64,000 nucleotides of DNA. It comes from Candidatus Levybacteria bacterium RIFCSPHIGHO2_01_FULL_40_16. GTDB taxonomy: Bacteria > Patescibacteriota > Microgenomatia > Levybacterales > UBA12049. The translations under genes and the position numbers were made by a program. The notes beneath the pieces were generated by a model. The model had not been told where the DNA came from. It ran no database searches and saw nothing but the letters and a program-made list of their open reading frames with translations. The number at the start of each line of letters is the position of its first letter. The stretch's first letter is position 1. This document shows, one piece after another, positions 22,984-61,701 of the stretch. The stretch spans positions 64,649 to 128,648 of the forward strand of contig MFNS01000001.1 of NCBI GenBank assembly GCA_001783805.1. The letters are read 5' to 3'.

Positions 22984-24515
22984 TGAAAAGAATTAGTTTA
23001 TTTTTCTTATTCTTAATACTTCTCCTTTCTTTTCTTTTGGGGGCTAGGATGGTTTTGTCTGGGGACTTTTTCTATCTTTACGATCAAGCCAGAGATTATT
23101 TGCTTGTGCAAAATATTGTTGATACGCGCGATCTTGTTTTAATTGGATCTCACAGTGGTTTGAGCGGTTTTTTCCATGGTCCTCTTTGGCTATATATACT
23201 TACGCCCGTCTATATTCTAGGCAGCGGTAATCCTTTTTCTTTTACATATGCATATGTCGGATTACAGCTTACGACAGTTCTGCTTGCATATTTGATTGGC
23301 TCAAAACTGTATGGAAATAAAGGAGGCCTTTTAATATCATTGTTAATTGCATTGTCACCGGCAACTTGGAGCACCGTTCAGAATACAATAGGAGTAAATG
23401 TTGTTTCACTTGTTTTTCTTGGCTTATTTTATTTTCTTATTAAGTTTTTAAGGGGTAACAAAAATTCTTTTATTTTTGCAGCATTTTTTGCAGGCCTTTC
23501 TCTTCAATTCGAAACTGCCCTCCCATTAATTTTAATTCCAGTTATGGTAATTATTTTTCTTTGGAATAAAATTGCAATTAAAAATTTGAGAGTAATCCTC
23601 TTATCTTTTATCTCTTATTTCTTATCTCTTGGCACATTTATCTTATTCGATCTTCGCCATAAATTCTTGATGACAAATGCATTAATAGGCGTTGTTAAGG
23701 GGGGCATAAAAGAAAAAGGATACCTAGAGTTTGAAGACAGGATTATCGCGCACGTTAATAGCTTGCTAGCTGTTTATGAAAGTATTTTATTTAATCAGAA
23801 TATTTGGTTGATAATATTGATGGTTATAATATTTATTATTGCCTTAATTTTAATTCATAGAAATAACGATATTAAGTACAGAAAAGAATTTGGATTTTTA
23901 TTATTATTTCCTGCTTTAACGTACGGGTTTTTCATGTTATATTCCTATCCTGTATGGCCCGAATATGTGTTTGGGTTACTTATTCCGGTTGCTTTTGCTT
24001 TTTATTTGGCACTTATAACCGTTTGGAAAAATTCTTTTGGAAAAATTTTGGTAATTATATTTTTTGTTATTACATCTGTTAATGTTTTAGGATTTTTACA
24101 GAATCAATATCTGATGAAGTATCAGCCGGTCGAATCAGCCGGTTCATATATAAATCAATTGGCGGTTGTCGATTGGATATTTATAGATGCGGAAAAAGGA
24201 AAGTTTGGGTATTTTGTTTATACGCCGGAAACTTTTACTCATGGAATGGATTATCTAATCTCCTGGAAAGCAAAAAGCTATCCAGACAAGATTCCCACTA
24301 AGAACAAAGAGCTAATAACTTACCTAATCTTGTATCCGCACATAGAAAATGATGAAGGAGCTTATGACTTTTGGAAGAAAAATACCTTAAGAACCAATAG
24401 TCAAATACTTTTGACAAAAACCTTTATCGGCGGAATCACTGTTGAAAAGCTACTTATCAACAAAAGTGAACCGGAAGTTGATCCAAATTATTATCAAGGC
24501 TTGTTGTTTAGATAG
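22983..24515 (+). CDS. PMT_2/ArnT-like GT-C glycosyltransferase candidate
   Basis: FFYLYDQARDY loop-1 motif shared with the gene at 28086. Multi-TM. The ATG at 22983 overlaps the upstream stop (TAATG). Confidence 0.4.
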   Translation: MKRISLFFLFLILLLSFLLGARMVLSGDFFYLYDQARDYLLVQNIVDTRDLVLIGSHSGLSGFFHGPLWLYILTPVYILGSGNPFSFTYAYVGLQLTTVLLAYLIGSKLYGNKGGLLISLLIALSPATWSTVQNTIGVNVVSLVFLGLFYFLIKFLRGNKNSFIFAAFFAGLSLQFETALPLILIPVMVIIFLWNKIAIKNLRVILLSFISYFLSLGTFILFDLRHKFLMTNALIGVVKGGIKEKGYLEFEDRIIAHVNSLLAVYESILFNQNIWLIILMVIIFIIALILIHRNNDIKYRKEFGFLLLFPALTYGFFMLYSYPVWPEYVFGLLIPVAFAFYLALITVWKNSFGKILVIIFFVITSVNVLGFLQNQYLMKYQPVESAGSYINQLAVVDWIFIDAEKGKFGYFVYTPETFTHGMDYLISWKAKSYPDKIPTKNKELITYLILYPHIENDEGAYDFWKKNTLRTNSQILLTKTFIGGITVEKLLINKSEPEVDPNYYQGLLFR

Positions 24516-32310: not shown

Positions 32311-32844
32311 ATGAAGATTGGGATAGACATATCGCAAATTGCCTACGAGGGAACAGGGGTGGCAAACTTTCTTAGTAATTTAGTCTCGAATTTATTAAAA
32401 TTTGATAAAAAAAATGAATATATTCTATTTTACTCTTCTTTAAGAAGAAATTTTCAATTTTCAATTTTCAATTTTCAAGCAAATCGCAATTTTCAAGTCA
32501 AAAAATTCAAATTTCCACCCTTAATTCTGGATTTACTTTGGAATAGGCTGCATGTTTTGCCGATTGAATGGCTGATTGGAGACGTGGATGTTTTTGTTAC
32601 TTCTGATTGGACAGAACCGCCGACTATTAAGGCAAAAAAAGCAACTATTCTGTACGATCTGATTATTTATAAATATCCGAATGAGACAGATAAAAAAATT
32701 GTTGAAGTGCAAAAACGCAAACTAAAATGGGTTAAAAAAGAGTCGGAAATGATATTTTGCATTTCCGAGTCGGCGAAAAAAGATGCGGAGGAAATCTTGG
32801 GGATAGAAAATAAGCGATTAAAGGTTATTTATCCCGGAATTTGA
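32311..32844 (+). pseudogene. GT4 glycosyltransferase, N-terminal domain only (truncated duplicate)
   Basis: 177 aa ending at the YPGI interdomain motif with no C-terminal EX7E domain. The next gene starts 2 nt later with its own N-domain. Contains a TTTTCAA x4 heptamer array. Confidence 0.4.
32451..32496 (+). repeat. heptamer array TTTTCAA x4 (+1) inside GT4 N-domain gene
   Basis: Four perfect copies at 32451–32478 and a fifth at 32490–32496. Read in frame it encodes NFQFSIFNFQ. Confidence 0.8.
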
Positions 32845-32845
32845 T

Positions 32846-33988
32846 ATGACAATAGGAATTAATGGATATGAGGCGGTAATTCCCAGATTTGGTTATGATC
32901 CAAAAACCGGCTTGCCGCGAAGGGTTGGGAGCGGAGAGTATTGTTTTCAGCTTTTATTAAACTTAAATAAAATTGATAAACAGAATAGCTACATAATTTA
33001 CCTTCCGGAAAACCCAACATCGGATTTACCCAAAGAATCCTCAAGCTGGCATTACAAGATTATTAAACCGAGAAAAATGTGGACTTTGTTCGGATTATCT
33101 TTGGAATTTCTATTTAGACGTTCGAAACCCGACGTTTTCCTTTCCCCGACGCACTATTTGCCAATTATCGCGCCAAACCGGTCGGCAATCTCCATTTTGG
33201 ACGTGTCATATCTAAAATTTCCGGAGCTTTTTCAAAAATCTGATCTCAATCAACTGACGAAATGGACTAAATATTCCGCCCAAAAGGCCTCAAAGATTTT
33301 TACTATTAGCCAGGCTAGCAAAGATGATATAATTGAAAAATACGGGATTATGGCAAACAAAGTTGTGGTAACATATCCCGGCGTAAAACTCAAAACTCAA
33401 ATGTCAAAACTCAAAACTGAAGCTCAAAACTCAAATCTGCTTAAGGAAAAGTATGGGATTGAAGGGAAGTATATTTTGTTTGTGGGGACGCTACAGCCCC
33501 GTAAGAATATCGTCCGCTTAATAGAGGCTTTTTCTAAGCTAAACAAGCCAAATCTAGATTTGATTGTTGTGGGCAAGAAAGGCTGGAAATTTGAGGAAAT
33601 CCTTGCAGCGCCTAAAAAGTTCGGAATAGAAAATAAAGTTAAGTTTCTGGGTTCCGTTTCGGATGAAGATCTGCCAGCTTTTTATAAGAATGCAATTTGT
33701 TTTGTTTTGCCAAGTCTGTATGAGGGCTTCGGACTGCCGGTTTTGGAAGCAATGAAGTATGGATGTCCGGTTGTAACCAGCAATATCTCCTCTCTTCCCG
33801 AGGCGGGAGGGGACGCGGCTTTGTACATAGATCCGCTTAATGTTGCAGATATAAAGAAGAATCTGGAATTAATAATTAACAATCAGGAATTACGCAAAGA
33901 TTTGATAAGAAAAGGCTACGAGCAGGTCAAAAAATTTAGCTGGGAAAAAACCGCAAAAGAAACATTAAGGGTGCTGGAGGGCATTTAA
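32846..33988 (+). CDS. GT4-family glycosyltransferase
   Basis: N-domain plus C-domain with EGFGLPVLEAM (EX7E). Confidence 0.65.
   Translation: MTIGINGYEAVIPRFGYDPKTGLPRRVGSGEYCFQLLLNLNKIDKQNSYIIYLPENPTSDLPKESSSWHYKIIKPRKMWTLFGLSLEFLFRRSKPDVFLSPTHYLPIIAPNRSAISILDVSYLKFPELFQKSDLNQLTKWTKYSAQKASKIFTISQASKDDIIEKYGIMANKVVVTYPGVKLKTQMSKLKTEAQNSNLLKEKYGIEGKYILFVGTLQPRKNIVRLIEAFSKLNKPNLDLIVVGKKGWKFEEILAAPKKFGIENKVKFLGSVSDEDLPAFYKNAICFVLPSLYEGFGLPVLEAMKYGCPVVTSNISSLPEAGGDAALYIDPLNVADIKKNLELIINNQELRKDLIRKGYEQVKKFSWEKTAKETLRVLEGI
33389..33436 (+). repeat. degenerate heptamer array CTCAAAA/CTCAAAT x~7 in GT4 interdomain linker
   Basis: Units are ctcaaaa ctcaaat gtcaaaa ctcaaaa ctgaag ctcaaaa ctcaaat. 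Encodes KLKTQMSKLKTEAQNSN. Confidence 0.75.
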
Positions 33989-40119: not shown

Positions 40120-41328
40120 ATGAACATTCTTTTGGTTTCATCATATCTGCCTTATCCTCTTTTTTCCGGAGGACACATCCGCTTGTATAATTTGATAAAA
40201 GAATTAAGTCATAAACATAAAATAACTTTGGTTTGTGAAAAAAGAGATTATCAAGGTGATGCCGAAATCTCGGAGCTTAAGAAATTCTGCAAAAAAGTTA
40301 TTTCAGTTCCCCGTAAAAAGCAATGGTCTTTGAAAAATATTACAAAAACCGGATTGTCAGCTTTACCCTTTTTAATAATAGGTCACACTAGTAGCGAAAT
40401 GCGGAAAGAAATTCAAAGAGAACTCAATGAAAATCAATTTGATTTAATTCACGCGGAGACTTCTTATGTAATGCAGAATATTCCTGAAACCAAAATTCCT
40501 ATTATTTTGGCAGAGCACAATGTGGAATATTTGGTCTACAAGCGTTTTGCAGATAAAGCACCATTGTTGCTGAGGCCGCTTTTGTATATGGATGTTTTAA
40601 AGCTTAAGCGTTGGGAAGAAGCAGTATGGAAAAAGGCCACGAAATTGATAGCGGTTTCAAAAATTGAAAAAGAAATTATGAACAAAGTTAGAAAAGATGT
40701 TGTTGTTGTTTCAAATGGAGTGGACATTGAAAAATTTACAATTAACGATTTACAATTAACAAGAGATGGAAGAGAAAAAAGAATTTTGTTTATTGGGGAA
40801 TTTAAATGGGTGCAAAATAGAGACGCAATCGAATGGATAATTAAAGAAATTTGGCCAAAGCTTATGGCCGAATTTATCCCGCCTATAACAGGCGGTGGGA
40901 TTAAATTATGGGTAGTTGGGAGGAATATTCCTGATTCAATTAGAGAATTGACAAGCGATAAAAATATTATATTTGATGACAAAGCACCAAAAGAAACGGA
41001 AGAGATATTCAGAAAATCAAATCTTCTCCTGGCTCCAATTCAGGTTGGCGGAGGAACGAGTTTCAAAATTTTGGAAGCAATGGCGAGCGGCGTTCCAGTT
41101 GTCACAACAGATCTAGGTAATGCAATAGGAGCAAAAGAAGATTTAGAAATAGTTATTGCAAATGAGGCGCACGATTTTATTGTAAAGATTAAAGAACTAT
41201 TCGAGAATAAGAAATTTTATGAAACAATTTCTCAAAATGCCAGAAAGTTAATTGAAGAAAAATTTAACTGGCAAAAAATTGCAGGAGATCTAGATTCCGT
41301 TTATGAGCTAGTCGTGCCTTATGCTTGA
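40120..41328 (+). CDS. GT4-family glycosyltransferase
   Basis: C-domain GGTSFKILEAMASGVPVV (EX7E). Confidence 0.65.
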   Translation: MNILLVSSYLPYPLFSGGHIRLYNLIKELSHKHKITLVCEKRDYQGDAEISELKKFCKKVISVPRKKQWSLKNITKTGLSALPFLIIGHTSSEMRKEIQRELNENQFDLIHAETSYVMQNIPETKIPIILAEHNVEYLVYKRFADKAPLLLRPLLYMDVLKLKRWEEAVWKKATKLIAVSKIEKEIMNKVRKDVVVVSNGVDIEKFTINDLQLTRDGREKRILFIGEFKWVQNRDAIEWIIKEIWPKLMAEFIPPITGGGIKLWVVGRNIPDSIRELTSDKNIIFDDKAPKETEEIFRKSNLLLAPIQVGGGTSFKILEAMASGVPVVTTDLGNAIGAKEDLEIVIANEAHDFIVKIKELFENKKFYETISQNARKLIEEKFNWQKIAGDLDSVYELVVPYA

Positions 41329-42199: not shown

Positions 42200-43338
42200 A
42201 AATAGGAATTGATACGAGGCTTTGGGGTGAAACTGGAGTTGGGAGATATATTCGCAATTTAGTGTCTGAACTTTCTAAAATAGACTTTAAGAATAGTTAT
42301 GTCTTGTTCGCCTTAAACAAAAACGAAAAAAACATTAAATCCGCAATTCGTAATTCTCAATTCGTAATTCGATTAACTGATATTAAGTGGCATACGCTTG
42401 AAGAACAATTAAAATTTCCTGCAATTTTGAATAAAGAAAATCTCGATCTAATACATTTTCCTTATTTTTCCGTTCCCGCTCTTTATAACAAACCATTTGT
42501 TTTTACGATTCACGATCTTATTATCGATCATTTTCCAACCGGACAGGCATCTGCTTTGCCATTTCCCATCTATAACCTTAAAAGGTTAGCATATAATCTT
42601 GTACTTAGTTACGCAGCAAAAAAAGCAAAAAAAATCATTACTGTTTCAAATGCGACGAAAGATGAAATTATAGATCATTTAAAAGTTAATCCCGAAAAAG
42701 TTGCAGTGACCTATGAGGGGGTGGATGATAGAATATCAAATATCAAATATCAAAAATCAAAAATTGATAGTGAATACTTTCTTTGTGTTGGGAATGCGTA
42801 TCCGCATAAAAATCTTGAGAGATTATTGGAAGCGTTTAAAATATTGGATAACGACACGAAACTTGTTTTGGTTGGAAAGGAAGATTATTTTTACAAAAGA
42901 TTAAGGAGTAAGGTGGCGGGAATGAGACTTTCCGACAAAACAATTCTCTTACAAAATGTAGCTGATGAAGAATTGTCAAGTTTGTACCAAAATGCAAAAG
43001 CTTTAATCTTGCCGTCTTTAATGGAAGGGTTTGGTCTGCCGGCTTTGGAGGCGATGGCGAATAAATGTTTGGTTTTGGCATCAGATATACCTTCATTGAG
43101 AGAAATATGTGGTAATGCCGCTTTGTATTTTAACCCATTAAGCATTGATGAATTGACAAAAAAGCTCAATATGGTTACCTCCCATACTACAGGGTATGGA
43201 AGGTTAGAAGAAATAAGAAAAAGAGGAATTGAGAGAGTCAAGCTTTTTTCCTGGCGCAAAATGGCAAGGAAGACATTGAAAATATATGAAAGTAGTTCTT
43301 CGGCAAGTCGAAGATACCCAGAGGGGCACTCAGAATAA
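42196..43338 (+). CDS. GT4-family glycosyltransferase
   Basis: EGFGLPALEAMANKCLVL. Contains two heptamer arrays (AATTCGT x4 and AATATCA x4–5). Confidence 0.65.
   Translation: MKIGIDTRLWGETGVGRYIRNLVSELSKIDFKNSYVLFALNKNEKNIKSAIRNSQFVIRLTDIKWHTLEEQLKFPAILNKENLDLIHFPYFSVPALYNKPFVFTIHDLIIDHFPTGQASALPFPIYNLKRLAYNLVLSYAAKKAKKIITVSNATKDEIIDHLKVNPEKVAVTYEGVDDRISNIKYQKSKIDSEYFLCVGNAYPHKNLERLLEAFKILDNDTKLVLVGKEDYFYKRLRSKVAGMRLSDKTILLQNVADEELSSLYQNAKALILPSLMEGFGLPALEAMANKCLVLASDIPSLREICGNAALYFNPLSIDELTKKLNMVTSHTTGYGRLEEIRKRGIERVKLFSWRKMARKTLKIYESSSSASRRYPEGHSE
42345..42372 (+). repeat. heptamer array AATTCGT-like x4 in GT4 N-domain
   Basis: Units are aattcgt aattctc aattcgt aattcga. Confidence 0.8.
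42732..42766 (+). repeat. heptamer array AATATCA x3 + AAAATCA + AAAATTG in GT4 interdomain linker
   Basis: Encodes ISNIKYQKSKI. Confidence 0.75.
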
Positions 43339-43365: not shown

Positions 43366-44535
43366 ATGAAAGTGGCATTAGTGTACGACCGATTGAATAA
43401 ATGGGGAGGGGCAGAAAGAGTAATGCTTGCTTTGCATAAGCTATTTCCTCTAGCTCCGCTTTACAGCTCAGTTTACGATAAAAAGAAAGCTCCTTGGGCC
43501 CTTCGTTTTAACTCAGGGCAAGCAAAAATTAAAACTTCTTTCCTTCAAAACTTTCCATTCGCCATGCGCCATGAGCTATATGCTGGCCTGATGCCTTTGG
43601 CGTTTGAGAGCTTTAATTTTGACGAGTTTGATTTAGTAATTTCCATAACTTCGGAAGCGGCAAAAGGAATTATTACTAAGCCCCAAACAAAACATATTTG
43701 TTATTGTTTAACGCCGACCCGTTATCTTTGGAGTGGATACAAAGACTATTTTAATAATCCGGTTCTTCGTTTTCTTTCATTTCCGGTTGTTTGGTATTTG
43801 AAGTTTTGGGATAAAATTGCAGCGCAAAGGCCGGACGCGTACATTGCGATTTCAAAAGAGGTTCAGATGAGGATTAAGAAGTATTATGGCAGAGAATCAA
43901 CCGTGGTGTACCCGCCAATCGAAATCTCAAATCTCAAATCTCAAATCTCAAATAAATCTCAAAATGCCAAATACAAAATACAAAATATCCCTTATTTCTT
44001 AATTGTTTCCCGTCTAGTTCCGTATAAGAAAATAGATCTTGCAATAAGAACTTTTAATAAATTAAAACTTCCCTTAAAAATAATTGGAACAGGCTCACAG
44101 ATGCAGGAATTAAAATCAATGGCGGAGCCGACAATTGAGCTTCTGGGTAACTTGACGGATAAAGAGCTGGTAAGGTATTATAGTGAGTGTTGCGCTTTGG
44201 TTTTTCCCGGTCCTGAAGATTTCGGTTTAACAATCTTAGAGGCGCAGGTTTTTGGCAAGCCGGTTATCGCTTTTAGAGGTGGAGGGGCTCTGGAAACAAT
44301 CATTGAAAAAAAGACAGGCGTTTTTTTTGAAGAACAAACAATCGAGAGCCTAACCAAAACAATAAAGCAATTTAACAAAATGAAATTTGATCCAAGAGAT
44401 TGCATCGAGCAAGCAAACAAATTTAATTTTAAAGTGTTTGAGGAGCGATTTATGCAAGAGATCCTTCGGCTGATGCCTCGTGCCGCCGGCATAGCCTTTG
44501 GCGACGCACGGCAGGATGACATTAATAAATTATGA
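43366..44535 (+). CDS. GT4-family glycosyltransferase
   Basis: MKVALVYDRL... and the C-domain EDFGLTILEAQVFGKPVI. A long AAATCTC/AAATACA heptamer array lies in the interdomain linker. The start was set at ATG 43366; the track starts at TTG 43351. Confidence 0.6.
   Translation: MKVALVYDRLNKWGGAERVMLALHKLFPLAPLYSSVYDKKKAPWALRFNSGQAKIKTSFLQNFPFAMRHELYAGLMPLAFESFNFDEFDLVISITSEAAKGIITKPQTKHICYCLTPTRYLWSGYKDYFNNPVLRFLSFPVVWYLKFWDKIAAQRPDAYIAISKEVQMRIKKYYGRESTVVYPPIEISNLKSQISNKSQNAKYKIQNIPYFLIVSRLVPYKKIDLAIRTFNKLKLPLKIIGTGSQMQELKSMAEPTIELLGNLTDKELVRYYSECCALVFPGPEDFGLTILEAQVFGKPVIAFRGGGALETIIEKKTGVFFEEQTIESLTKTIKQFNKMKFDPRDCIEQANKFNFKVFEERFMQEILRLMPRAAGIAFGDARQDDINKL
43922..43989 (+). repeat. heptamer array AAATCTC x4 followed by AAATACA x2–3 in GT4 interdomain linker
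   Basis: 68 nt of AAAT-N-N-C-type units. Encodes EISNLKSQISNKSQNAKYKIQNI. Confidence 0.8.
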
Positions 44536-46303: not shown

Positions 46304-46344
46304 TTGACCCCGCTAAGCGGGGTTGACAGGATTGAGCTTTTTTG
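46304..46344 (+). terminator. GC-rich stem-loop (gaccccgc-taa-gcggggtt) followed by a T-run; possible terminator/attenuator between the phosphoglycosyl transferase and DUF4012 genes
   Basis: An 8-bp stem (one mismatch) with a 3-nt loop at 46306–46324. The T6 run starts about 12 nt downstream, so this is non-canonical. It overlaps a TTGACA hexamer. Confidence 0.3.
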
Positions 46345-48913: not shown

Positions 48914-50215
48914 ATGGACTCATCCAACTTAATGGATAAAATTACCGCGCTTTGCAAAAGACGGGGAATAATATTCCCGGGAAGTGAATTGTACGGCGGA
49001 TTAAACGGAACATGGGATTTGGGGCCAATAGGAACACTAATAGCAAATAACATTAAAAATGAATGGCTAGGAAACATGCTTTCTCGAGGAAATATAGTTC
49101 CTCTGGATTCCTCAATATTGCATGCAGCTCGTGTCTGGGAAGCATCAGGCCATGTGACATCATTTACTGATCCATTGGTTGAATGTAAAATCTGCCATGA
49201 AAGATTTAGGGCGGATCATGAAGGTCAAATTAAAGAACACGAGAAGACTCACGACAAGCATTCCTGGACAGAAGTAAAATCATTTAATCTGATGTTTAAA
49301 ACATTTGTCGGGCCAATTGATGATGAGAAAAACAAGACTTATCTCCGACCCGAAACTGCGCAGGGAATTTTTATTAATTTTAAAAATGTTATTGATTCAA
49401 CAAGAATAAATATTCCTTTTGGAATTGCACAAATCGGTAAAGGATTTAGAAACGAAATTACAACCGGCAATTTCTTATTTCGTGTTCGCGAATTTGAACT
49501 GATGGAGCTGGAGTTTTTTGTAAAGCCGACTGAAAGCGCAAGGTGGTATGAATATTGGAAAAAGGAACGCCTGAATTGGTATTTGTCACTTGGTATTAGA
49601 AAAGAAAACGTAAAGTTAGCTGACCTACCAAAGAAAGACATTGCTCATTACTCTAAAGGAACTTCGGAAATCTGGTATAAATGGCCATTTATGGGATTTG
49701 GAGAATTAGAGGGTATTGCAAATCGAGGTGATTATGATTTATCACAACATTCGAAATATTCCGGGAAAGACCTTTCGTATTTTGATGAAAAAACAAAAGA
49801 AAAATATTTGCCATACGTGATTGAACCATCTGTTGGTATAGGACGAGCAATGCTTGCGTTTCTACTTGACGCTTTCCATGAAGAAAAAAAAAGAATTGTT
49901 TTGAAGCTTCATCCGAAACTTGCCCCTTATAAAGTTGCGGTATTTCCGCTATTAGCCAATAAACCTGAACTTGTTAAAAAAGCGGAAGGAATTTGCAAGG
50001 GCTTAATGAAAAGTTTTGTCACGGTTTATGATGGACGCGGAAATATCGGCAAACGTTATTTTGCCCAGGATGAAATCGGAACGCCGTTTTGCATTACCGT
50101 TGATTTTGAAACCTTGGAAAACGATACGGTGACAATCCGGATTCGGGACACCATGAAACAGGAAAGAGTAAGAGTGCCTGACCTCGTAAGCCTCATCAGT
50201 CGTAAAATTATCTAA
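48914..50215 (+). CDS. glyQS: glycine--tRNA ligase (alpha2 type)
   Basis: RRGIIFPGSELYGGLNGTWDLGPIGTLI... class II motifs. 433 aa. Confidence 0.75.
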   Translation: MDSSNLMDKITALCKRRGIIFPGSELYGGLNGTWDLGPIGTLIANNIKNEWLGNMLSRGNIVPLDSSILHAARVWEASGHVTSFTDPLVECKICHERFRADHEGQIKEHEKTHDKHSWTEVKSFNLMFKTFVGPIDDEKNKTYLRPETAQGIFINFKNVIDSTRINIPFGIAQIGKGFRNEITTGNFLFRVREFELMELEFFVKPTESARWYEYWKKERLNWYLSLGIRKENVKLADLPKKDIAHYSKGTSEIWYKWPFMGFGELEGIANRGDYDLSQHSKYSGKDLSYFDEKTKEKYLPYVIEPSVGIGRAMLAFLLDAFHEEKKRIVLKLHPKLAPYKVAVFPLLANKPELVKKAEGICKGLMKSFVTVYDGRGNIGKRYFAQDEIGTPFCITVDFETLENDTVTIRIRDTMKQERVRVPDLVSLISRKII

Positions 50216-50281: not shown

Positions 50282-51769
50282 ATGGCTAATTTGGAATTAT
50301 CCCCTCATTGTCCAGAGATTAAGGGAGTTCAGGACGAATGTGCCGTTGTTGGCGTTTTTTCAACAATATCTAAGCCTGTTGCAGAAATTGCATTGGAAGG
50401 TTTGATAGAACTTAATCACCGTGGTCAGGAAAGCTCCGGAATTGCGATTGTAGGCGAGAATGGGATTCAAGTAGTTAAAGATTCGGGACTCGCCGAAATT
50501 GTATTTAAAATAAAGCACAATTTGCCTGATACTCCTGGCGCTTCTGTTGCGGTTGGGCATGATAGGTATTCCACCTCGGGATCCCTAAGCGATATGCAGC
50601 CGTTTAGCGACGGCAATATTGCGTTTGCTCATAACGGAAATTTGACCAATATTAAACAGCTTAAGGCTCGGTTTAATTTACCTGATGAAATTGATGGGGC
50701 AAAAAGCGATACCAGAATGGCCTTAGCAGTAATAAATAGCCTGCGGGGAACCGAAAAAGAAAGAATATTGCAGACATTACCCCTATTTGAGGGGTCATAT
50801 TGCTTTGTATTCGGAACCAAAGATTCCTTATATGCGAGTAGAGACCCAAGGGGATTTAAACCCCTTGTGATTGGGAAGATTAAGGATGATGGATATGTTG
50901 TTGCATCAGAAACGGCGGCATTGCGTTCAATGGGAGCAAGTTTTCTTCGTGAAGTTGAAGCGGGAGAAACGATTCAGATAGATAAATATGGTCTAAAAAC
51001 CATAGCTTTTGCCGGTAAAAACGAAAAACTTTCCAGATGCATCTTTGAACTTGTTTATTTTTCAAGGCCGGATAGTGTTGTGTTTGGTATTCCCGTAATG
51101 GAATTTAGAAAAAGACAAGGTGAGATACTCGCAAGACATCTTCCTGATGTTGATGTTGTGTCATCAGTGCCAAGATCAGGAATTGGAGCTGCACTTGGAG
51201 TTGTAACTGCAGAAATAGCAAGAATATCCAGAATAACTCCAATTCCTGTTGAGGCTTTTTACCCAAATCCATATCGGAATGTTGCGGAAAACGGTCCTAG
51301 AACTTTTATATTGCCAAATGGCAGAGATAAGGCAGCCACACAAAAATATTCAGTTATAGAAACAAGCGTCAAAGGCAAAAGAATTCTTTTAGTTGATGAC
51401 TCAATAGTTAGGGGATCGATGAGGAGGATAGTTCAGATATTAAGATCTCATGGTGCTATTGAAGTACATGCCTTAATAGCTTCCCCTTCACTTAGGAACT
51501 CATGTTATTATGGGGCAGATTTTGGCGATGGGGAACTTCTTGCGCATGAGATTCCGGATCTTGAAGAAAGAAGAAGGTATCTTGGTCTTGACAGCCTTTA
51601 TCACTTGAGTTATGCTGAGTTATTAGAAGCTGTTTTGGGAAATCCGGTTGAGAATGTTGCGGAATCATTTGAAAAAAATGGTTTTTGCGGCGCTTGCTTT
51701 ACAGGTAAGTATCCAACATCTACCGGCGGAGAAATAAATAAAAAGGAAGTTCAAATCTGTGAAAAATAA
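50282..51769 (+). CDS. purF: amidophosphoribosyltransferase
   Basis: Propeptide then CAVVGVF (Ntn Cys), then ...RGQESSGIA..., the PRTase motif LVDDSIVRGSM, and C-terminal Cys ligands (FCGACFTGKYP). Confidence 0.7.
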   Translation: MANLELSPHCPEIKGVQDECAVVGVFSTISKPVAEIALEGLIELNHRGQESSGIAIVGENGIQVVKDSGLAEIVFKIKHNLPDTPGASVAVGHDRYSTSGSLSDMQPFSDGNIAFAHNGNLTNIKQLKARFNLPDEIDGAKSDTRMALAVINSLRGTEKERILQTLPLFEGSYCFVFGTKDSLYASRDPRGFKPLVIGKIKDDGYVVASETAALRSMGASFLREVEAGETIQIDKYGLKTIAFAGKNEKLSRCIFELVYFSRPDSVVFGIPVMEFRKRQGEILARHLPDVDVVSSVPRSGIGAALGVVTAEIARISRITPIPVEAFYPNPYRNVAENGPRTFILPNGRDKAATQKYSVIETSVKGKRILLVDDSIVRGSMRRIVQILRSHGAIEVHALIASPSLRNSCYYGADFGDGELLAHEIPDLEERRRYLGLDSLYHLSYAELLEAVLGNPVENVAESFEKNGFCGACFTGKYPTSTGGEINKKEVQICEK

Positions 51770-52211
51770 GAAAATAATTACATTTTTAGTGGTTGGGGTA
51801 ATTGTTTTGCTTGTTGGCGGATTCTTGGTTTTATCCGATAAGAAAGCTCCCGCTCCGATTATTCAAATTCCCCCCGAAGAAATAATTTCGATGATGAAGC
51901 CTGAAGAAATAGGATTGACACTAACGGCATCCAGTGACAATAAAAAAGTAATTCTTGAAGTTGAAAACACAAACGGCATAACGGGTCTTGATTATGAATT
52001 GTCTTATACGTCCAAAGGTAATATTCCCCGCGGAGTTATCGGACATATTGACATCAAACAAGCCGGGAGAAAGATTCTGCAGGAAATTACTCTGGGGACA
52101 TGCTCAGATGTTTGTCATTATGATGAAGGCGTTTCCAATATAAAATTAATCTTAAAAGTTGCAAAAACGGATGGAACAGTCGGCCAAGTCGAAAAATCCC
52201 TCGAACTTTAG
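51759..52211 (+). CDS. hypothetical membrane-anchored small protein
   Basis: 150 aa with a GTG start overlapping the purF end, an N-terminal TM helix and then a soluble domain. No recognisable family. Confidence 0.3.
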   Translation: MKNKKIITFLVVGVIVLLVGGFLVLSDKKAPAPIIQIPPEEIISMMKPEEIGLTLTASSDNKKVILEVENTNGITGLDYELSYTSKGNIPRGVIGHIDIKQAGRKILQEITLGTCSDVCHYDEGVSNIKLILKVAKTDGTVGQVEKSLEL

Positions 52212-52214
52212 TAT

Positions 52215-52256
52215 TAACTTCTAACTTCTAACTGCTAATGACTAACTTTTAACAAC
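52215..52256. repeat. intergenic heptamer array TAACTTC-like x6 (stops in all three frames)
   Basis: The six units are taacttc taacttc taactgc taatgac taacttt taacaac. The array begins 4 nt after the stop of the upstream gene. Confidence 0.7.
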
Positions 52257-52307
52257 TACATCTTGCGTAATTCTACTTTGTAGAACACTATTGTGGTCAT
52301 TTCCCTA

Positions 52308-52336
52308 TTGACATAGTCAATAAATCGTACCAAAAT
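52308..52336 (+). promoter_or_regulatory. candidate sigma70-like Pmra promoter (TTGACA-N17-CAAAAT)
   Basis: TTGACA at 52308–52313 with a weak -10 at 52331–52336. The predicted TSS falls in the first GTGGG box. Confidence 0.3.
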
Positions 52337-52340
52337 GGAA

Positions 52341-52370
52341 TAAAGTGGGTCAAAGTGGGAAAAGGTGGGA
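52341..52370 (+). promoter_or_regulatory. MraZ operator: three GTGGG direct repeats at exact 10-bp spacing
   Basis: AAAGTGGGTC AAAGTGGGAA AAGGTGGGAC (GTGGG at 52345, 52355 and 52365). This matches the known MraZ binding-site architecture upstream of mraZ. Confidence 0.65.
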
Positions 52371-52488
52371 CGGACTGAGCATTGCGAAGGAGTCCGCTTG
52401 CGAGCAGCAGCGAGACAAGGGCGGCATGCTCAACAGAAAGGCAGGCCCGCCTAAAATATAAAAAATTTTAGCGGCGGGTAAATTAAAA
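52371..52488 (+). promoter_or_regulatory. GC-rich structured 5' leader of mraZ (candidate cis-regulatory RNA)
   Basis: About 100 nt of locally high GC in a 35%-GC genome. Stems: ggact..agtcc and tgagcat..atgctca. A 12-bp hairpin, cccgcctaaaat[ataaaaa]attttagcggcggg, ends 18 nt before the mraZ ATG. Confidence 0.35.
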
Positions 52489-52929
52489 ATGTTATTAGGG
52501 CAATATGAAGGCAAAGTCGGAGAGAAGAGCAGAATAGCTCTTCCTAAAAAATTAAGAGAAATTATCGGAGAAAAGTTAATAATAACTTTAGGATATGAAA
52601 ACTCGCTTATTCTCGTATCGGAAGCAGGTTGGAAGGCACTTCTTGAGGGAACAGAAGGTAGACCGTTTATTGAAAAACCAGCCCGGGAGATCCAGCGTTA
52701 CCTTCTTGGAGGAGCAACCAACATTTCGCTTGATTCTAAAGGAAGGTTTATTATACCTGACTACTTGCGACGCTTTGCAAAGATTAAAGGAAAAGTTGTA
52801 TTCCTAGGATTGTCGCGGTATGTTGAGCTGTGGGATATGGAACTTTGGGAAGAGTACCGCCAGAACCTTGAAAAAAACATTGATAAGATTTCGGAAAAAC
52901 TTATTAATAAGGAAGACACGAAAAAATGA
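52489..52929 (+). CDS. mraZ: transcriptional regulator MraZ
   Basis: Two SpoVT/AbrB-like halves (...KSRIALPKKLRE... and ...DSKGRFIIPDYLR...). 146 aa. Confidence 0.8.
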   Translation: MLLGQYEGKVGEKSRIALPKKLREIIGEKLIITLGYENSLILVSEAGWKALLEGTEGRPFIEKPAREIQRYLLGGATNISLDSKGRFIIPDYLRRFAKIKGKVVFLGLSRYVELWDMELWEEYRQNLEKNIDKISEKLINKEDTKK

Positions 52930-53798
52930 GTGACTTTCATGAGGGTGTACTTTTAAAAGAAACAATAGCCGGATTAAAAGTTGAGAAAAACAAAAAGTAC
53001 ATTGACGCAACATTGGGAGGGGGAGGACACACGGGTGAGATTTTGAAGCATGGGGGGATCGTTTTGGGCTTGGATGTTGATGAGGATGCGCTTGCGTACG
53101 TTGATAAAAATTTCAAATTTCAAATTTCAAATTTCAAATTGACGCTGGCGAGAGGAAATTTTAGAGATATAGATAGAATTGCACTTTTAAATAATTTTGC
53201 TCCGCCGGCTGGCGGAGTGGCCGGAATAATTTTTGACCTTGGTGTTTCCGGCTATCAGATAGATAATCCCGCGCGCGGATTCAGTTTCCAGTATGAGGGC
53301 CCGCTGGATATGAGAATGGACCAGGATTTGGGAGTAAGGGCCCTAGATTTAATCAAGATTCTGACGAAAGGAGAGCTCTATGAAATATTTACTAGATTTG
53401 GTGAAGAGAACCATGCTTGGGAGATTGCTAACGCTATTGTTAGGGCCCGTAGCGTAAAAGCAATTGCAACAACCAGGGATCTGGCGAAAATAATTTTTCC
53501 AATAGCCGGGCAAAGTAAAAGAGTCTTTCAAGCACTTAGAATCGCAGTGAACGACGAGCTAGATGCAATTACGCAAGCCCTACCGAAAGCTTTAAAGCTT
53601 TTAGAGAAAAATGGAAGATTATGCGTAATTTCGTTTCATTCTCTGGAAGACAGAATCATCAAAAGAAAATTTTTGGAATTTGAAGAGAAAAATTTGGGAA
53701 AAATTATTACGGAAAAACCAATTGTTACGACAAACGAAGAAATCGAAAAGAATAAAAGAGCAAGAAGTGCAAAATTAAGAATATTTGAAAAAACTTAA
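52926..53798 (+). CDS. rsmH: 16S rRNA (cytosine1402-N4)-methyltransferase RsmH
   Basis: HEGVLLKETI...DATLGGGGHT...DLGVSGYQID...FHSLEDR. Contains an AAATTTC x4 heptamer array in a variable region. Confidence 0.8.
   Translation: MSDFHEGVLLKETIAGLKVEKNKKYIDATLGGGGHTGEILKHGGIVLGLDVDEDALAYVDKNFKFQISNFKLTLARGNFRDIDRIALLNNFAPPAGGVAGIIFDLGVSGYQIDNPARGFSFQYEGPLDMRMDQDLGVRALDLIKILTKGELYEIFTRFGEENHAWEIANAIVRARSVKAIATTRDLAKIIFPIAGQSKRVFQALRIAVNDELDAITQALPKALKLLEKNGRLCVISFHSLEDRIIKRKFLEFEEKNLGKIITEKPIVTTNEEIEKNKRARSAKLRIFEKT
53108..53140 (+). repeat. heptamer array AAATTTC x4.7 inside rsmH
   Basis: 33 nt, in frame (NFKFQISNFKL). Replaces a non-conserved surface segment. Confidence 0.8.
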
Positions 53799-53818
53799 CC
53801 CCGTGTGACGGGGCAAAT

Positions 53819-54103
53819 ATGAAAAAACCTTATCTTATAATTACAATTTTATTGGGATTAGTCATAGTTCTATCTATAACTAGAGCATTCCTGCATAATA
53901 TGCTGTCTACGTCCGGAATTTTCGTAAGCCGTGCCGAACAGGAAATAAATTTCTATAAAACGCAGAATGCTATTCTAGCAGAAGAGCTCTTGACAGAGTC
54001 CTCCTTGACGAATACCATTGAGAAAGCAAGGGAGTCAGGATTTACCGACGAAAACACCCTAATGGTTATTAAAACATCAAGACCTTTGGCAGTCAGACCA
54101 TGA
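53819..54103 (+). CDS. ftsL: cell division protein FtsL-like
   Basis: 94 aa, single TM plus a coiled-coil. Sits between rsmH and ftsI. Confidence 0.5.
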   Translation: MKKPYLIITILLGLVIVLSITRAFLHNMLSTSGIFVSRAEQEINFYKTQNAILAEELLTESSLTNTIEKARESGFTDENTLMVIKTSRPLAVRP

Positions 54104-55793: not shown

Positions 55794-57029
55794 ATGTGGC
55801 AGAGAACAAAGAATCTTTATCATCTCGGTATTGCGATCATTTCCAATGCCTGGTTTAAATTTCCTTCAAGAAAGTTGACCATAATTGGCGTAACCGGAAC
55901 GGATGGAAAAACGACGACAACCAGCCTTATCTATCACGTTTTACATACTGCCGGTTTGAATACTTCAATGGTGAGCTCAATCGGGGCAGTAATCAACGGA
56001 AAAAACTTTGATGTAGGCTTTCACGTCACCACCCCCTCCTCTTTTGCCCTGCAGAGATTCTTACAAAAAGCTTCCAAGGAGAGCCCTTCCTCTGGCGCCA
56101 CCCCTCGAAATTTCTTAGTTCTGGAAACTACATCCCACGCTTTGGATCAGTACCGGGTTTTTGGGATTAAATTCGCTGTCGGAGTATTAACGAATGTTAC
56201 CCATGAACACTTGGACTATCACAAAACCTATGAAAATTACGTTAAAACAAAGGCAAAGTTGCTCAAGATGTCCAGAATTGCAGTTGTGAATAAAGATGAC
56301 CAGTCATATCGCTTGATAAATTCGAAATTCGAAATTCGAAATTCGAAATTAGTAACCTATGGGTTGGGAAAAGATTCGGATATAAATCCGAAAACATTTC
56401 CTTTTAAAACAAATTTAATCGGTGATTACAACAAATATAATATTTTGGCCGCAATAAGTGCTTGCAGAGCGCTTGGAGTAAAGGATGAGGCAATAAGGAA
56501 GGGAATTGAAAGTTTTGTGGCGCCACTTGGCAGGGGAGACATTGTTTATCCAACGGCTGCCTTAGGGCAAGCTGATTTTACGGTGATGATTGATTTTGCT
56601 CACACTCCGAATGCAATTGATCAAGTTTTAAAATCGGTTAGGCCGATTGTTGAAGGCAAAATTATTCATGTTTTCGGTTCTGCCGGAGCAAGAGATGTGA
56701 CAAAAAGACCGTTAATGGGAGAAATGTCCTCCAAATACGCGGACATAATTATTCTGACAGCCGAAGATCCAAGAAAAGAAAATGTTGAAAAGATTATGAA
56801 CGGGATAGCCGGAGGAATTCAGAATTCGGAATTAAGGATTAAGAATGGAACATTGTTTAAAATTCCAGACCGGAAAGAGGCAATTAAAACCGGAATTAAA
56901 CTGGCTAAGAAAGGTGATTTTGTCATTATTACCGGAAAATCGCACGAAAGATCTATGAATTACGGACACGGAGAGGTCGCATGGGACGAATATGGAGTTG
57001 TTAGAAGAGTATTAAGGATTAATGATTAA
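55794..57029 (+). CDS. murE: UDP-MurNAc-L-Ala-D-Glu:diamino-acid ligase MurE (lacks canonical N-terminal domain)
   Basis: IIGVTGTDGKTTTTS P-loop, VVNKDD, EDPR and ITGKSHE. Only 411 aa. Contains an AAATTCG x4 array. Confidence 0.7.
   Translation: MWQRTKNLYHLGIAIISNAWFKFPSRKLTIIGVTGTDGKTTTTSLIYHVLHTAGLNTSMVSSIGAVINGKNFDVGFHVTTPSSFALQRFLQKASKESPSSGATPRNFLVLETTSHALDQYRVFGIKFAVGVLTNVTHEHLDYHKTYENYVKTKAKLLKMSRIAVVNKDDQSYRLINSKFEIRNSKLVTYGLGKDSDINPKTFPFKTNLIGDYNKYNILAAISACRALGVKDEAIRKGIESFVAPLGRGDIVYPTAALGQADFTVMIDFAHTPNAIDQVLKSVRPIVEGKIIHVFGSAGARDVTKRPLMGEMSSKYADIIILTAEDPRKENVEKIMNGIAGGIQNSELRIKNGTLFKIPDRKEAIKTGIKLAKKGDFVIITGKSHERSMNYGHGEVAWDEYGVVRRVLRIND
56318..56350 (+). repeat. heptamer array AAATTCG x4.7 inside murE
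   Basis: 33 nt, in frame (NSKFEIRNSKL). Lies between the NxDD motif and the ...TYG strand. Confidence 0.8.
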
Positions 57030-57038
57030 GGATTAATG
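57011..57038 (+). repeat. perfect 2 x 14-nt (4 x ATTAA[G/T]G heptamer) tandem repeat spanning the murE stop and murC RBS/start
   Basis: attaaggattaatg attaaggattaatg. Copy 1 encodes the murE C-terminus (LRIND) and copy 2 supplies the murE TAA stop and the murC ATG. Confidence 0.8.
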
Positions 57039-58415
57039 ATGAAAAAAATAAAGTCAATACATTTTGTGGGGATAAAAGGGGTCGGGATGACACCTTTGGC
57101 AATTATTGCCAAGGAAGCGGGAGTAGTTGTTTCCGGCTCGGACATTGCTGATGAATTTATTACCGATAAGGTGCTTAAAAAAGCGGGAATAATACCAATG
57201 GTTGGGTTTGCTGATAAAAATGTCGGAGACGTTGATTTAATTATTGCAACCGGAGCCCATGGCGGATTTAACAATCCCGAAGTTCTGGCAGCAAAAAAGA
57301 AAAAAATAAAAGTGATTACTCAAGGAGAAGCAGTCGGGGTTTTCATGGACGGAACAATTTTTAACAGAAAATTTTCAGGAATTTCCGTCACCGGAACGCA
57401 TGGAAAAACTACGACAACTGCAATGATTGCCACCTTACTTAAAGCAAATAATTTTGACCCGTCCTTTTTAATTGGGACTGCGACCGCGATTTCTTTAGGA
57501 GTGCCGGGACATTACGGATTAGGGGACTATTTCGTAGCTGAAGCGGATGAATATATGACGGAACCAACTTTCGACGCAACTATCAAACACATGTGGCAGC
57601 ATCCGAAAATTGCGGTAATTACCAATATCGAGTTTGACCATCCTGATGCTTATAGCTCGCTAAGGGACACGCGGGAAAAATTTCTGGCTTTTGCCAAGCA
57701 ATTGCCAAAAGACGGAGTTTTAATTGTCTGCGGAGACGATCCGCAAATAAAACAACTGCTTGGTGAATTTAGGGGTAAGAAAATAACGTACGGTTCCGCA
57801 AGGCAGAACGATTATATTGTTGATAATGTCTTGAAAGATGTTGAACTTTCCGTTTTCGGAGACCATAACCGTTTGAATGCAACTGCGGCTTTTGCAGTTG
57901 GAATAGAGATTGGCTTATCCAAAGAACAGATTAAAAAAGGTTTAGAGCGATATAAGGGTTCGAAAAGAAGATCCGAATTTGTCGGCACACTTTCATCCGG
58001 GGCACGGGTATTTGATGATTATGCGCACCATCCGACCGAAGTTCAAAAGACGCTCAGAGCTTTCAGAGAAAAATTTCCAAACTCGAAAATAGTCTGCATT
58101 TTTCAACCGCATACTTATTCCAGAACAAAATCTTTGTTCGAACAGTTTGCTAATTCATTTAAAGACGTTGATACGGTTATTCTGACCAACATCTATTCAT
58201 CTTTACGCGAAAAACCCGATCTAACAGTTTCAATGGAAGATTTGGCAAATAAAATCGGTAAGAAAGCCTTATTCTTGCCGGAAGCAAGCGATGTGGTAAA
58301 ATACATTAATGATCAAGGCTACGGAAATGATATTGTTCTGATTACGATGGGCGCGGGAGATGTCTATAAGATAAATTCAGAACTCAAAATGCAAAAGTCA
58401 AAATTAATAGAATAA
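57036..58415 (+). CDS. murC: UDP-N-acetylmuramate--L-alanine ligase
   Basis: IHFVGIKGVGMTPLAIIAKEAGVVVSGSD is the MurC N-terminal signature. GTHGKTTTT P-loop. Confidence 0.75.
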   Translation: MMKKIKSIHFVGIKGVGMTPLAIIAKEAGVVVSGSDIADEFITDKVLKKAGIIPMVGFADKNVGDVDLIIATGAHGGFNNPEVLAAKKKKIKVITQGEAVGVFMDGTIFNRKFSGISVTGTHGKTTTTAMIATLLKANNFDPSFLIGTATAISLGVPGHYGLGDYFVAEADEYMTEPTFDATIKHMWQHPKIAVITNIEFDHPDAYSSLRDTREKFLAFAKQLPKDGVLIVCGDDPQIKQLLGEFRGKKITYGSARQNDYIVDNVLKDVELSVFGDHNRLNATAAFAVGIEIGLSKEQIKKGLERYKGSKRRSEFVGTLSSGARVFDDYAHHPTEVQKTLRAFREKFPNSKIVCIFQPHTYSRTKSLFEQFANSFKDVDTVILTNIYSSLREKPDLTVSMEDLANKIGKKALFLPEASDVVKYINDQGYGNDIVLITMGAGDVYKINSELKMQKSKLIE

Positions 58416-61611: not shown

Positions 61612-61701
61612 ATGTGTGGAATATTCGGAACGGACGATCGCGTAGCGAAGAGAGTTCACCTGCAAGTGAAACGGACAGGCGTGGGTGATTGTAAATAAAT
61701 T
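61612..61701 (+). promoter_or_regulatory. GC-rich element beginning with a synonymous duplicate of the glmS start (29-codon uORF MCGIFG...)
   Basis: atgtgtggaatattcgga... encodes MCGIFG, as does the glmS start atgtgtggcatatttggt. The rest is about 65 nt of GC-rich sequence ending TAA 4 nt before glmS. The uORF is in the same frame as glmS. Confidence 0.35.

Follow-up and report, generated by a model that had tools for sequence, protein, structure and literature searches.

The mraZ upstream region of a Candidatus Levybacteria dcw operon: promoter, predicted MraZ-box operator and a GC-rich leader with probable lineage-specific insertions

The DNA analysed here, hereafter the window, is a stretch of 64,000 nucleotides (nt) from a genome of Candidatus Levybacteria (Candidate Phyla Radiation (CPR)/Patescibacteria). 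Its positions 52212 to 52488 separate a gene of 150 amino acids (aa) from mraZ of the dcw operon (for division and the cell wall). We consider it likely that this interval holds the promoter, the operator and the 5' leader of the Levybacteria dcw operon, and that its heptamer array and GC-rich leader are lineage-specific additions to that arrangement. The GC-rich leader is best described, from the comparison of related loci, as two lineage-specific structured insertions, namely a module of two hairpins, P1 and P2 (52368-52422), and a third hairpin, P3 (52446-52478). The coordinates of all features are given in Table 1.

Species-representative genomes contributed 41 loci, and metagenomes another 80, to a search for MraZ relatives; loci are cited by L numbers, and the window sequence is labelled WIN among them. 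The lineage-named genome records of these loci belong to Levybacteria/Levyibacteriota or Patescibacteria, a few being labelled 'uncultured Gammaproteobacteria', and the closest relatives of the window are all Candidatus Levybacteria genomes. The window GlmS has 100% identity with a protein from a Levybacteria genome. Anchoring the loci on the -35 hexamer gave 97 distinct orthologous mraZ upstream sequences, selected by a match to TTGAC[AT], so that the presence of a -35 in them is partly by construction. Leader elements (GGC[AG]GG, hairpins) were counted over 98 distinct mraZ leaders. The sampled DNA consists of the 64 kb of the window genome and mostly dcw neighbourhoods of its relatives. A preliminary description of the interval, made from its sequence, had named the downstream gene mraZ, and Pfam confirms this assignment. 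The gene is followed by rsmH/mraW at 52926-53798 (Pfam, 2.4e-83), and the operon order in relatives is mraZ-rsmH-ftsL-ftsI-mur...-glmS-...ftsA-ftsZ. The 150-aa gene is a constant neighbour 5' of mraZ across related Levybacteria loci; a Pfam search gave no family for its open reading frame (ORF).

The arrangement TTGACA-17 nt-CAAAAT is the top sigma-70-like match of the region (10/12). Its spacer falls within the 16-18 nt of sigma-70-type promoters and both hexamers are conserved in orthologues, TTGACT standing in place of TTGACA in one of the 97 upstream sequences. Their consensus reads ac.cta.ttt ... tTTt.ccT.TTGACA - 17 nt - tCAAAATG..a..AAGTGG...AAAGTGGGAaAAaGTGGG, and the boxes that follow CAAAATG in it are AAGTGG, AAAGTGGG and AAaGTGGG. 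The promoter had been located properly in the preliminary description; the -10 hexamer that was called weak there is in fact conserved. Since the -10 ends at 52336, transcription is predicted to start near 52343-52345, which would place the perfect MraZ boxes described below at about +1 to +27. Further 5' lies an inverted repeat, which may be bound by a protein or may terminate transcription of the upstream gene. The palindrome TTCTGCTTTGCAGAA occupies the equivalent position in L005, L046, L054 and L065, and an inverted repeat is found at an analogous position in Staphylococcus aureus (PMC11796246).

The promoter is overlapped by an array of MraZ boxes, in which a degenerate ATGGA, sharing nucleotides with the -10, is in phase with three perfect GTGGG boxes. 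Tandem Repeats Finder (TRF) reports a 20-nt period over 52331-52369. The GTGGG triple in exact 10-bp steps is the sole occurrence in the 64 kb (0.00 expected, 100 shuffles). It had been read as the documented layout of a MraZ operator, and a lack of phasing in related genomes had been named beforehand as a possible refutation; 10-bp-phased (A)AAGTGG(G/T) boxes recur across the 97 distinct regions and agree with published boxes. Many lineages have two more in-phase boxes within the -35/-10 spacer (TTGACAAGTGGGAAAAAGTGG.TCAAAATG), giving up to six boxes at 10-nt intervals, both spacer positions being degenerate in the window. On the protein side, the MraZ translation carries K13 and R15 (...GEKSRIALP...) and R86 (...LDSKGRFIIP...), DNA-contacting residues at their published positions. 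In Mycoplasma genitalium these three residues contact four GTG(T/G) boxes in the structures obtained by cryo-electron microscopy (PMC12957436). In B. subtilis the motif GTGG[A/T]G occurs three times, separated by spacers of 4 nt, and R15 and R86 are required (bioRxiv 10.1101/2022.02.09.479790). AAAGTG[T/G] repeats are described in Mollicutes (PMC8475190).

With at least three direct repeats of a GTG(G/T) core at a 10-bp period (4-5 nt spacers) and a MraZ bearing basic residues and DXXXR motifs, the segment 52335-52369 is, as far as sequence can tell, an added example of the documented MraZ-box operator, in what reads as a standard autorepressed dcw promoter. MraZ subunits would insert into successive major grooves at the boxes, and the oligomer would cover the -10 and the start region to repress its own operon, an autorepression that experiments have shown for MraZ of E. 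coli, B. subtilis and Mycoplasma. The operators of these bacteria share with the window the number of boxes, three to four, and a cognate MraZ with K13, R15 and R86. The window differs from them in its phylum, CPR/Levybacteria, for which the literature searched gave no treatment of a MraZ-box operator, and in the position of its boxes, which overlap the -10 and sit just 3' of it, whereas the four boxes of M. genitalium are reported 5' of the promoter (PMC12957436). The two additional spacer boxes of many Levybacteria relatives are a further difference.

The sequence 3' of the boxes is a compositional outlier, as noticed earlier: the highest GC content over 80 nt in the window, 0.64 compared with a mean of 0.358 (standard deviation 0.069), falls within 52341-52463. 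Folded on its own, without comparison, the complete leader is unexceptional (z = -1.88; 11 of 200 shuffles fold as well). The minimum-energy pairing of GAGCAT (52377-82) with ATGCTC (52426-31), with the same z of only -1.88 and absent in the closest relatives, was replaced by the comparative P1/P2 model. In this model the 4-bp base stem of P1 takes in the final two G of box 3 and exists in five variants, GGAC/GUCC, GGGC/GCCC (L039), GAGC/GCUC, GAAC/GUUC and GGUC/GACC; the tip of P1 varies as well. P2 has a stem of 4-5 bp and a 15-nt loop, in which L064 and L074 carry extra nested hairpins. The module is found at mraZ in about 11 of the 98 lineages, distributed in a group A (window (WIN), L039, L055/56, L054, L045, L070) and a group B (L005, L058, L064, L074), L067 having an incomplete remnant. 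The tip of P1 in group B leaders is formed by an inverted copy (GTTCTGCAAAGCAGAAC) of the 52271-52285 palindrome. The commonest leader form is ...gaaAGGCAGGaat-ATG and, among leaders whose last box was located automatically, 6-74 nt separate that box from the ATG, except in nine module-bearing leaders, where the distance is 96-119 nt. Conservation of the GC-rich leader among relatives, the lack of which the preliminary description had named as a refutation, is therefore not found, the module being confined to these lineages and a hairpin before the ATG to ten others.

Where the module is present, its pairing is maintained by compensatory changes, as the covariation check proposed beforehand reveals. 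In group A, 94.9% of the cells of the pairing table are paired and 3 pairs are changed on both sides; over groups A and B these values become 98.4% and 3 of 8 pairs, and across the three insertion sites presented below 100% of cells are paired, with compensatory changes in 4 of 8 pairs and none broken. One-sided changes are absent. In P2 the changes are U-A to C-G in L045 and group B, and C-G to G-C in L038. Rfam, the other check proposed, gives no match in the whole window at gathering thresholds, mraW motif and glmS ribozyme included, and with E up to 10 over 51700-53000 yields only two chance matches, to unrelated archaeal small nucleolar RNA families. The mraW RNA motif of Rfam is a structured motif 5' of mraW/mraZ in Actinobacteria. 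In the window, too, the dcw operon leader contains a GC-rich element with structure, but no Rfam family matches it. With the insertions, the predicted 5' untranslated region grows to about 145 nt, compared with about 45 nt otherwise; they would probably act on mRNA stability or translation, and would not be needed for control by MraZ.

The P1-P2 module is also present outside mraZ. A covariance model searched over the window and the related loci recovered every mraZ copy and two others. One lies 5' of glmS in the window, where the order is ATGTGTGGAATATTCGGA / module / ...TAAATT / ATGTGTGGCATATTTGGTTAC and a duplicate of the 18 nt that begin glmS, identical at 15 of 18 positions, stands 5' of the module. 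In six relatives the gap between glmS and the gene before it is only 2-29 nt, without module, so that the copy at this site is probably an insertion specific to the lineage of the window. A 28-codon upstream ORF at 61612-61698 (MCGIFGTDDRVAKRVHLQVKRTGVGDCK) has its stop 3 nt before the glmS ATG at 61702 and could have kept glmS translated, by termination-reinitiation, after the insertion. The third site, downstream of ftsI in L038 (3457-3523), scores 29.3 bits. The module thus has copies at non-homologous sites, few in number: the mraZ leader, glmS and, in L038, after ftsI. A candidate signature of insertion at glmS is the diverged 18-nt duplicate together with the six empty sites; at mraZ there are short GTGG flanks only. 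A BLAST search with the leader as query, over the window and the loci, finds no copy outside mraZ leaders, the glmS and L038 copies coming from the covariance model only; a 15-nt exact match to the leader at 59925 is inside an ORF and was taken as chance. Together, P1-P2 and P3 are probably dispersed, structured GC-rich insertions, with a possible modulation of the mRNA.

Small dispersed palindromic insertions of this kind are exemplified by the Rickettsia palindromic elements, which are found in frame within ORFs, by REP/MITE-like repeats and by the GC clusters of yeast mitochondria. The Levybacteria modules resemble them as short GC-rich hairpins in an AT-rich genome, patchy among close relatives, with nested insertions, pairing kept by compensatory changes and related GC palindromes in frame within housekeeping genes. 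They differ in that P1-P2 is known from three sites only, always in sense and beside gene starts, that neither a transposase nor terminal repeats could be recognised for it, and that a duplication of 18 nt exceeds the typical length of target-site duplications.

GGCAGG, between the boxes and the ATG, is the most conserved element of these leaders: 82 of the 98 distinct leaders have GGC[AG]GG at most 70 nt from the ATG, most often 0-11 nt before it. Candidate roles are an unusual ribosome-binding site or a protein-binding site. A coding role, as part of a MraZ N-terminal extension, was rejected because the frame to the ATG varies and the MLLGQY start of the window MraZ matches what we take to be the N-terminus of the E. 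coli and B. subtilis proteins; upstream in-frame ATGs do occur in some lineages. GGCAGG as the usual ribosome-binding site of this genome was likewise discarded, the motif not being enriched in the window (14 found, 12.7 expected) and most window genes having no sequence similar to a Shine-Dalgarno (SD) element. Many genes (e.g. at 48914, 55794, 11689 and 2263) have instead TATAAT-like hexamers 6-10 nt 5' of the ATG, which suggests that many mRNAs may be leaderless or have very short leaders.

Hairpin P3, between GGCAGG and the ATG, is the 12-bp hairpin of the preliminary description; its 12 bp are confirmed, interrupted by a bulge of 2 nt, and 10 nt, not 18, separate its end from the ATG (52489). 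Its 3' arm is a second GGC[AG]GG. Ten other lineages have different hairpins at this spot (CCCCGC-taa-GCGGGG, CCTCA...TGAGG, CCCTTT...AAAGGG and others), followed by an A-rich tail of 4-10 nt and the ATG, and the GGCAGG-ATG interval is, by this comparison, an apparent insertion hot spot. Two readings of P3 fit the leaders: folding would bring GGCAGG back to its usual short distance from the ATG, or the G-rich 3' arm (GGCGGG, GGGGT or GAGGT) would be an SD-like element held in a stem. Hairpin-bridged ('split') ribosome-binding sites are reportedly used by genes 38 and 25 of phage T4. P3 has in common with them a stable hairpin between a purine-rich sequence, here GGCAGG, and the start codon, and the distance left after folding, 4-10 nt, is inside the 0-11 nt of hairpin-free relatives. 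It differs in that GGCAGG is an SD candidate only, in a window where most genes have no obvious SD, and in that the 3' arm could be a sequestered GGCGGG.

At the other end of the interval, the six heptamers after the upstream stop codon read TAACTTC TAACTTC TAACTGC TAATGAC TAACTTT TAACAAC (TRF: period 7, 5.6 copies, 75% matches). The sixfold TAACTTC stop array announced earlier is therefore real and, with TAA each 7 nt, stops all three frames, although only two of its units are perfect. The core of the intergenic region, between stop codon and -35, measures about 55 nt in relatives, and heptamers follow the stop in a subset only, where the stop codon is itself the first unit (taa|CTTC TAACTTC ...). 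Copy number there goes from about 2 (L003: TAACTTC TAACAAC) to 6, with drifting units, and many relatives have no array. The window as a whole has 13 non-overlapping arrays of period 7/14 (0.85 expected, Markov shuffles), a clear over-representation. Nearly all the others are carried by long ORFs, in their coding strand, and for the most part measure 27-33 nt; three arrays are longer (44-66 nt). Units of the ORF-internal arrays have no stop in any frame, and every unit of the intergenic array can carry TAA because there is no selection against stops outside an ORF. From these features the TAACTTC array is apparently a slippage-type heptamer repeat of variable copy number; we see no reason for a role in the control of mraZ. 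The array sits 5' of the promoter.

The twelve ORF-internal arrays have mostly 4-5 copies, two being longer (55 and 66 nt) and several 100% perfect, and the unit varies between arrays. They are hosted, among others, by rsmH, by murC in its C-terminal tail, by a Mur ligase and by four GT4-type glycosyltransferases, where they follow the GVD/YPG motif in the linker between domains. The rsmH array (53108-53140 in the window) has a counterpart of about 32 nt at one codon position in 42 related loci (about +610 to +690 from the mraZ ATG), with units that differ between nearly all lineages (AAATTTC, AAATCTC, AAAAATC, GGAAGAT, AAGTTAA and others), and other lineages have no array at this site (KPENLTL). 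Position, length and period are conserved; sequence is not. GlmS homologues display a similar pattern at two hot spots. Heptameric repeats are over-represented in bacteria, for which polymerase slippage was proposed (PMC4692102), and TAACTGA heptamers 5' of genes in Beggiatoaceae, whose forward copies overlap stop codons, were proposed to be regulator sites (PMC4679880). The Levybacteria arrays share with such repeats (TAACTGA of Beggiatoaceae/cyanobacteria, GGGAATC of Xanthomonas) a strong over-representation of period 7, an intergenic copy that overlaps or follows a stop codon, and slippage as a proposed origin (PMC4679880, PMC4692102). They differ by being short, mostly within housekeeping ORFs, and by a unit that changes from array to array. 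The array at mraZ does not belong to the TAACTGA family, its unit being TAACTTC with variants and those of the other window arrays unrelated.

The structure of P1-P2 also suits another explanation, namely a dedicated cis-regulatory RNA (riboswitch or protein-binding leader) that in some Levybacteria would coordinate the mraZ/dcw operon with glmS and with the gene that follows ftsI. Several observations weigh for it and against reading the module as an insertion element. The compensated pairs among the three loci, with no pair broken, have their equivalent within the mraZ copies, and the unpaired CGGA, GAG and GACA are conserved. The module of WIN is 98% and 96% identical to those of L039 and L055, where the mraZ coding sequence is 84% and 81% identical, far above neutral DNA. 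All known copies are in sense orientation, each just 5' of a peptidoglycan or division gene, so that the three sites are all 5' regions of cell-wall or division genes. High identity, orientation and position together are as compatible with selection for an RNA function as with a selfish element. The word 'dispersed' stands on three sites with few copies, the covariance model giving no further one, either elsewhere in the window or over about 115 kb of extra dcw sequence, and the neighbour-joining tree of mraZ and rsmH, star-like and with carriers interspersed with non-carriers, does not separate gain from loss. Sampling almost entirely of the dcw neighbourhood biases the picture, and by the same token may make the cell-wall link of a regulatory RNA an artefact. 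Such an RNA accords poorly with a module that is scattered over a poorly resolved tree in about 11 of 98 mraZ leaders, incomplete in L067, interrupted by nested hairpins in the P2 loop of L064 and L074 and without a matching Rfam family. It also leaves aside the glmS site, empty in six relatives and marked, where occupied, by the duplicated gene start. We hold a regulatory RNA of this kind to be rather unlikely. The earlier idea of a cis-regulatory leader is upheld for the compensatory pairing of the module; the leader behaves as a dispersed insertion and not as a conserved mraZ leader RNA.

The two other elements of the interval have competing explanations as well. The three GGG tracts of the boxes, spaced by 7 nt, could be seen as a G-quadruplex that controls PmraZ in place of protein-binding boxes, such a structure being reported 3' of PmraZ in S. 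aureus (PMC11796246). The window has three G3 tracts only, the adjoining runs being GG, where at least four with loops of 1-7 nt are called for; conservation takes in the A-rich flanks (AAAGTGG) and the exact 10-bp phase, GTGGT boxes break the G3 tract in many relatives, and the DNA-contact residues of MraZ are conserved. All this argues for protein-binding boxes and renders a G-quadruplex extremely improbable. For the heptamer array, stops in all three frames might serve as a trap against read-through, or the repeats as a binding array for a post-transcriptional regulator, the role proposed for TAACTGA in Beggiatoaceae (PMC4679880). Most relatives lack the array or have another copy number or unit, it begins at the stop codon in relatives that have it, other arrays of the window have unrelated units inside ORFs and, being 5' of the promoter, it is probably outside the mraZ mRNA. 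A function of either sort has very little to recommend it, and the earlier view of the array as a control element of mraZ gives way to its membership in a window-wide class of period-7 repeats.

GC-rich palindromes and hairpins are found at other places of the window and of the related loci. The window rsmH has an in-frame palindrome CTCCGCC-ggct-GGCGGAG at 53200-53217, the site of which is occupied in relatives by TCCGCCAGCTGGCGGA, TCCGCCGGCCGGCGGA or CCACGTcaaACGTGG, or by nothing. A 21-nt palindrome C(C/T)TGCCTGCCGGCAGGCA(A/G)GG, encoding LPAGRQG, is present in rsmH of L039 (3722)/L073 and in glmS of L126 (10416), and GC-rich inserts interrupt heptamer arrays in rsmH (L010, L067) and glmS (L127, L128). 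We count such in-frame palindromes in housekeeping genes in favour of insertion. Perfect GC-rich hairpins are in modest excess in the window (7; 2.6 +/- 1.6 expected). Hairpins of the P3 type, with a C-run and a G-run, stand in intergenic gaps just before genes: ACCCCGC-taa-GCGGGGT (46307-46323) is 35 nt before an ATG at 46358 and CCCCGT-gtg-ACGGGG (53799-53813) is 5 nt before the ftsL-like ATG at 53819. L009 has, in its mraZ leader, a hairpin identical to the CCCCGC-taa-GCGGGG of the window. The related loci have in addition a second family of dispersed hairpins, (A)TGA(C/T)C-CTTCGAnnnn(G/A)CTCAG-G(G/A)TCAT, with conserved loop and variable stems. Its loop motif has 40 matches in 646 kb, about half with flanking stems, for instance between ftsL and ftsI (examples in L127 at 2152, L018 at 4709 and 4755, L019 at 4696 and L063 at 3116). 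In L018, L019, L048, L053, L060, L065 and L071 the loop motif also comes after box 3 of the mraZ leader, and in L127 it is inside the glmS ORF; a loop-motif search of the window found none.

Table 1. Features of the mraZ upstream region and related elements of the window.
Feature	Position	Strand	Basis or remark
Upstream gene, 150 aa; hydrophobic N-terminus (predicted membrane anchor), conserved G[TS]CS..C.YD motif	51759..52211	+	ORF
Imperfect tandem array of six TAACTTC-like heptamers, right after the upstream stop codon	52215..52256	+	Sequence and TRF
Inverted repeat TTCTAC-ttt-GTAGAA, 5' of the promoter	52271..52285		Read from the sequence
CACTATT motif, about 16 nt 5' of the -35	52286..52292	+	Consensus 'ac.cta.ttt' in 97 distinct upstream regions
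-35 hexamer TTGACA	52308..52313	+	Best sigma-70-like site; conserved in the 97-sequence consensus
-10 hexamer CAAAAT, 17 nt past the -35	52331..52336	+	tCAAAATG kept at >=80% in 97 sequences
Predicted MraZ operator: degenerate box ATGGA (52335), perfect GTGGG boxes (52345, 52355, 52365); 10-bp period	52335..52369	+	Matches published boxes
Hairpin P1: base stem GGAC/GUCC, purine-rich internal loop with conserved CGGA and GAG, tip GC-auu-GC	52368..52395	+	RNAalifold, pair counts
Hairpin P2: GCTTG ... CAAG-gg-C around CGAGCAGCAGCGAGA	52396..52422	+	Compensatory changes
GGCAGG, most conserved element of Levybacteria mraZ leaders (box-to-ATG interval)	52440..52445	+	Leader comparison
Hairpin P3: CCCGCCTAAAAT, loop ATAAAAA, ATTTTA-gc-GGCGGG	52446..52478	+	Fold -12.6 kcal/mol
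mraZ, 146 aa	52489..52929	+	Pfam MraZ PF02381, 1.5e-27, two matched stretches
Second P1-P2 copy, 5' of glmS	61612..61701	+	Covariance-model match 61625-61686, 21.8 bits, E ~2e-4
ORF-internal period-7 arrays	23598-23630, 32449-32478, 33385-33439, 40733-40762, 42338-42371, 42732-42761, 43922-43987, 53108-53140, 56318-56350, 56815-56846, 57011-57040, 58373-58405	Coding strand of ORFs	Repeat scan

About 100 orthologous examples now bring the Candidate Phyla Radiation into the range of the MraZ-box operator, and the presence in some lineages of up to six in-phase boxes across the promoter bears on the number of subunits of the MraZ ring that engage DNA. The leader is a caution against calling a GC-rich, well-folding sequence a riboswitch from a single genome, since comparison here reveals a lineage-specific insertion. 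As a tentative suggestion, for which we claim only low confidence, P1-P2, with its two compensated helices and a conserved GA-rich internal loop, could represent a structured RNA motif of a new type. Peptidoglycan and division genes (the mraZ operon, glmS and the gene after ftsI) would have acquired it at their 5' ends for post-transcriptional control in common, within an undescribed Levybacteria module system of GC hairpins and period-7 arrays, mostly of about 30 nt, that remodels leaders and housekeeping ORFs. If GC modules and heptamer arrays are general in Levybacteria, they would be a CPR counterpart of the Rickettsia palindromic elements and a source of in-frame variation for essential enzymes, among them RsmH, GlmS, Mur ligases and glycosyltransferases.

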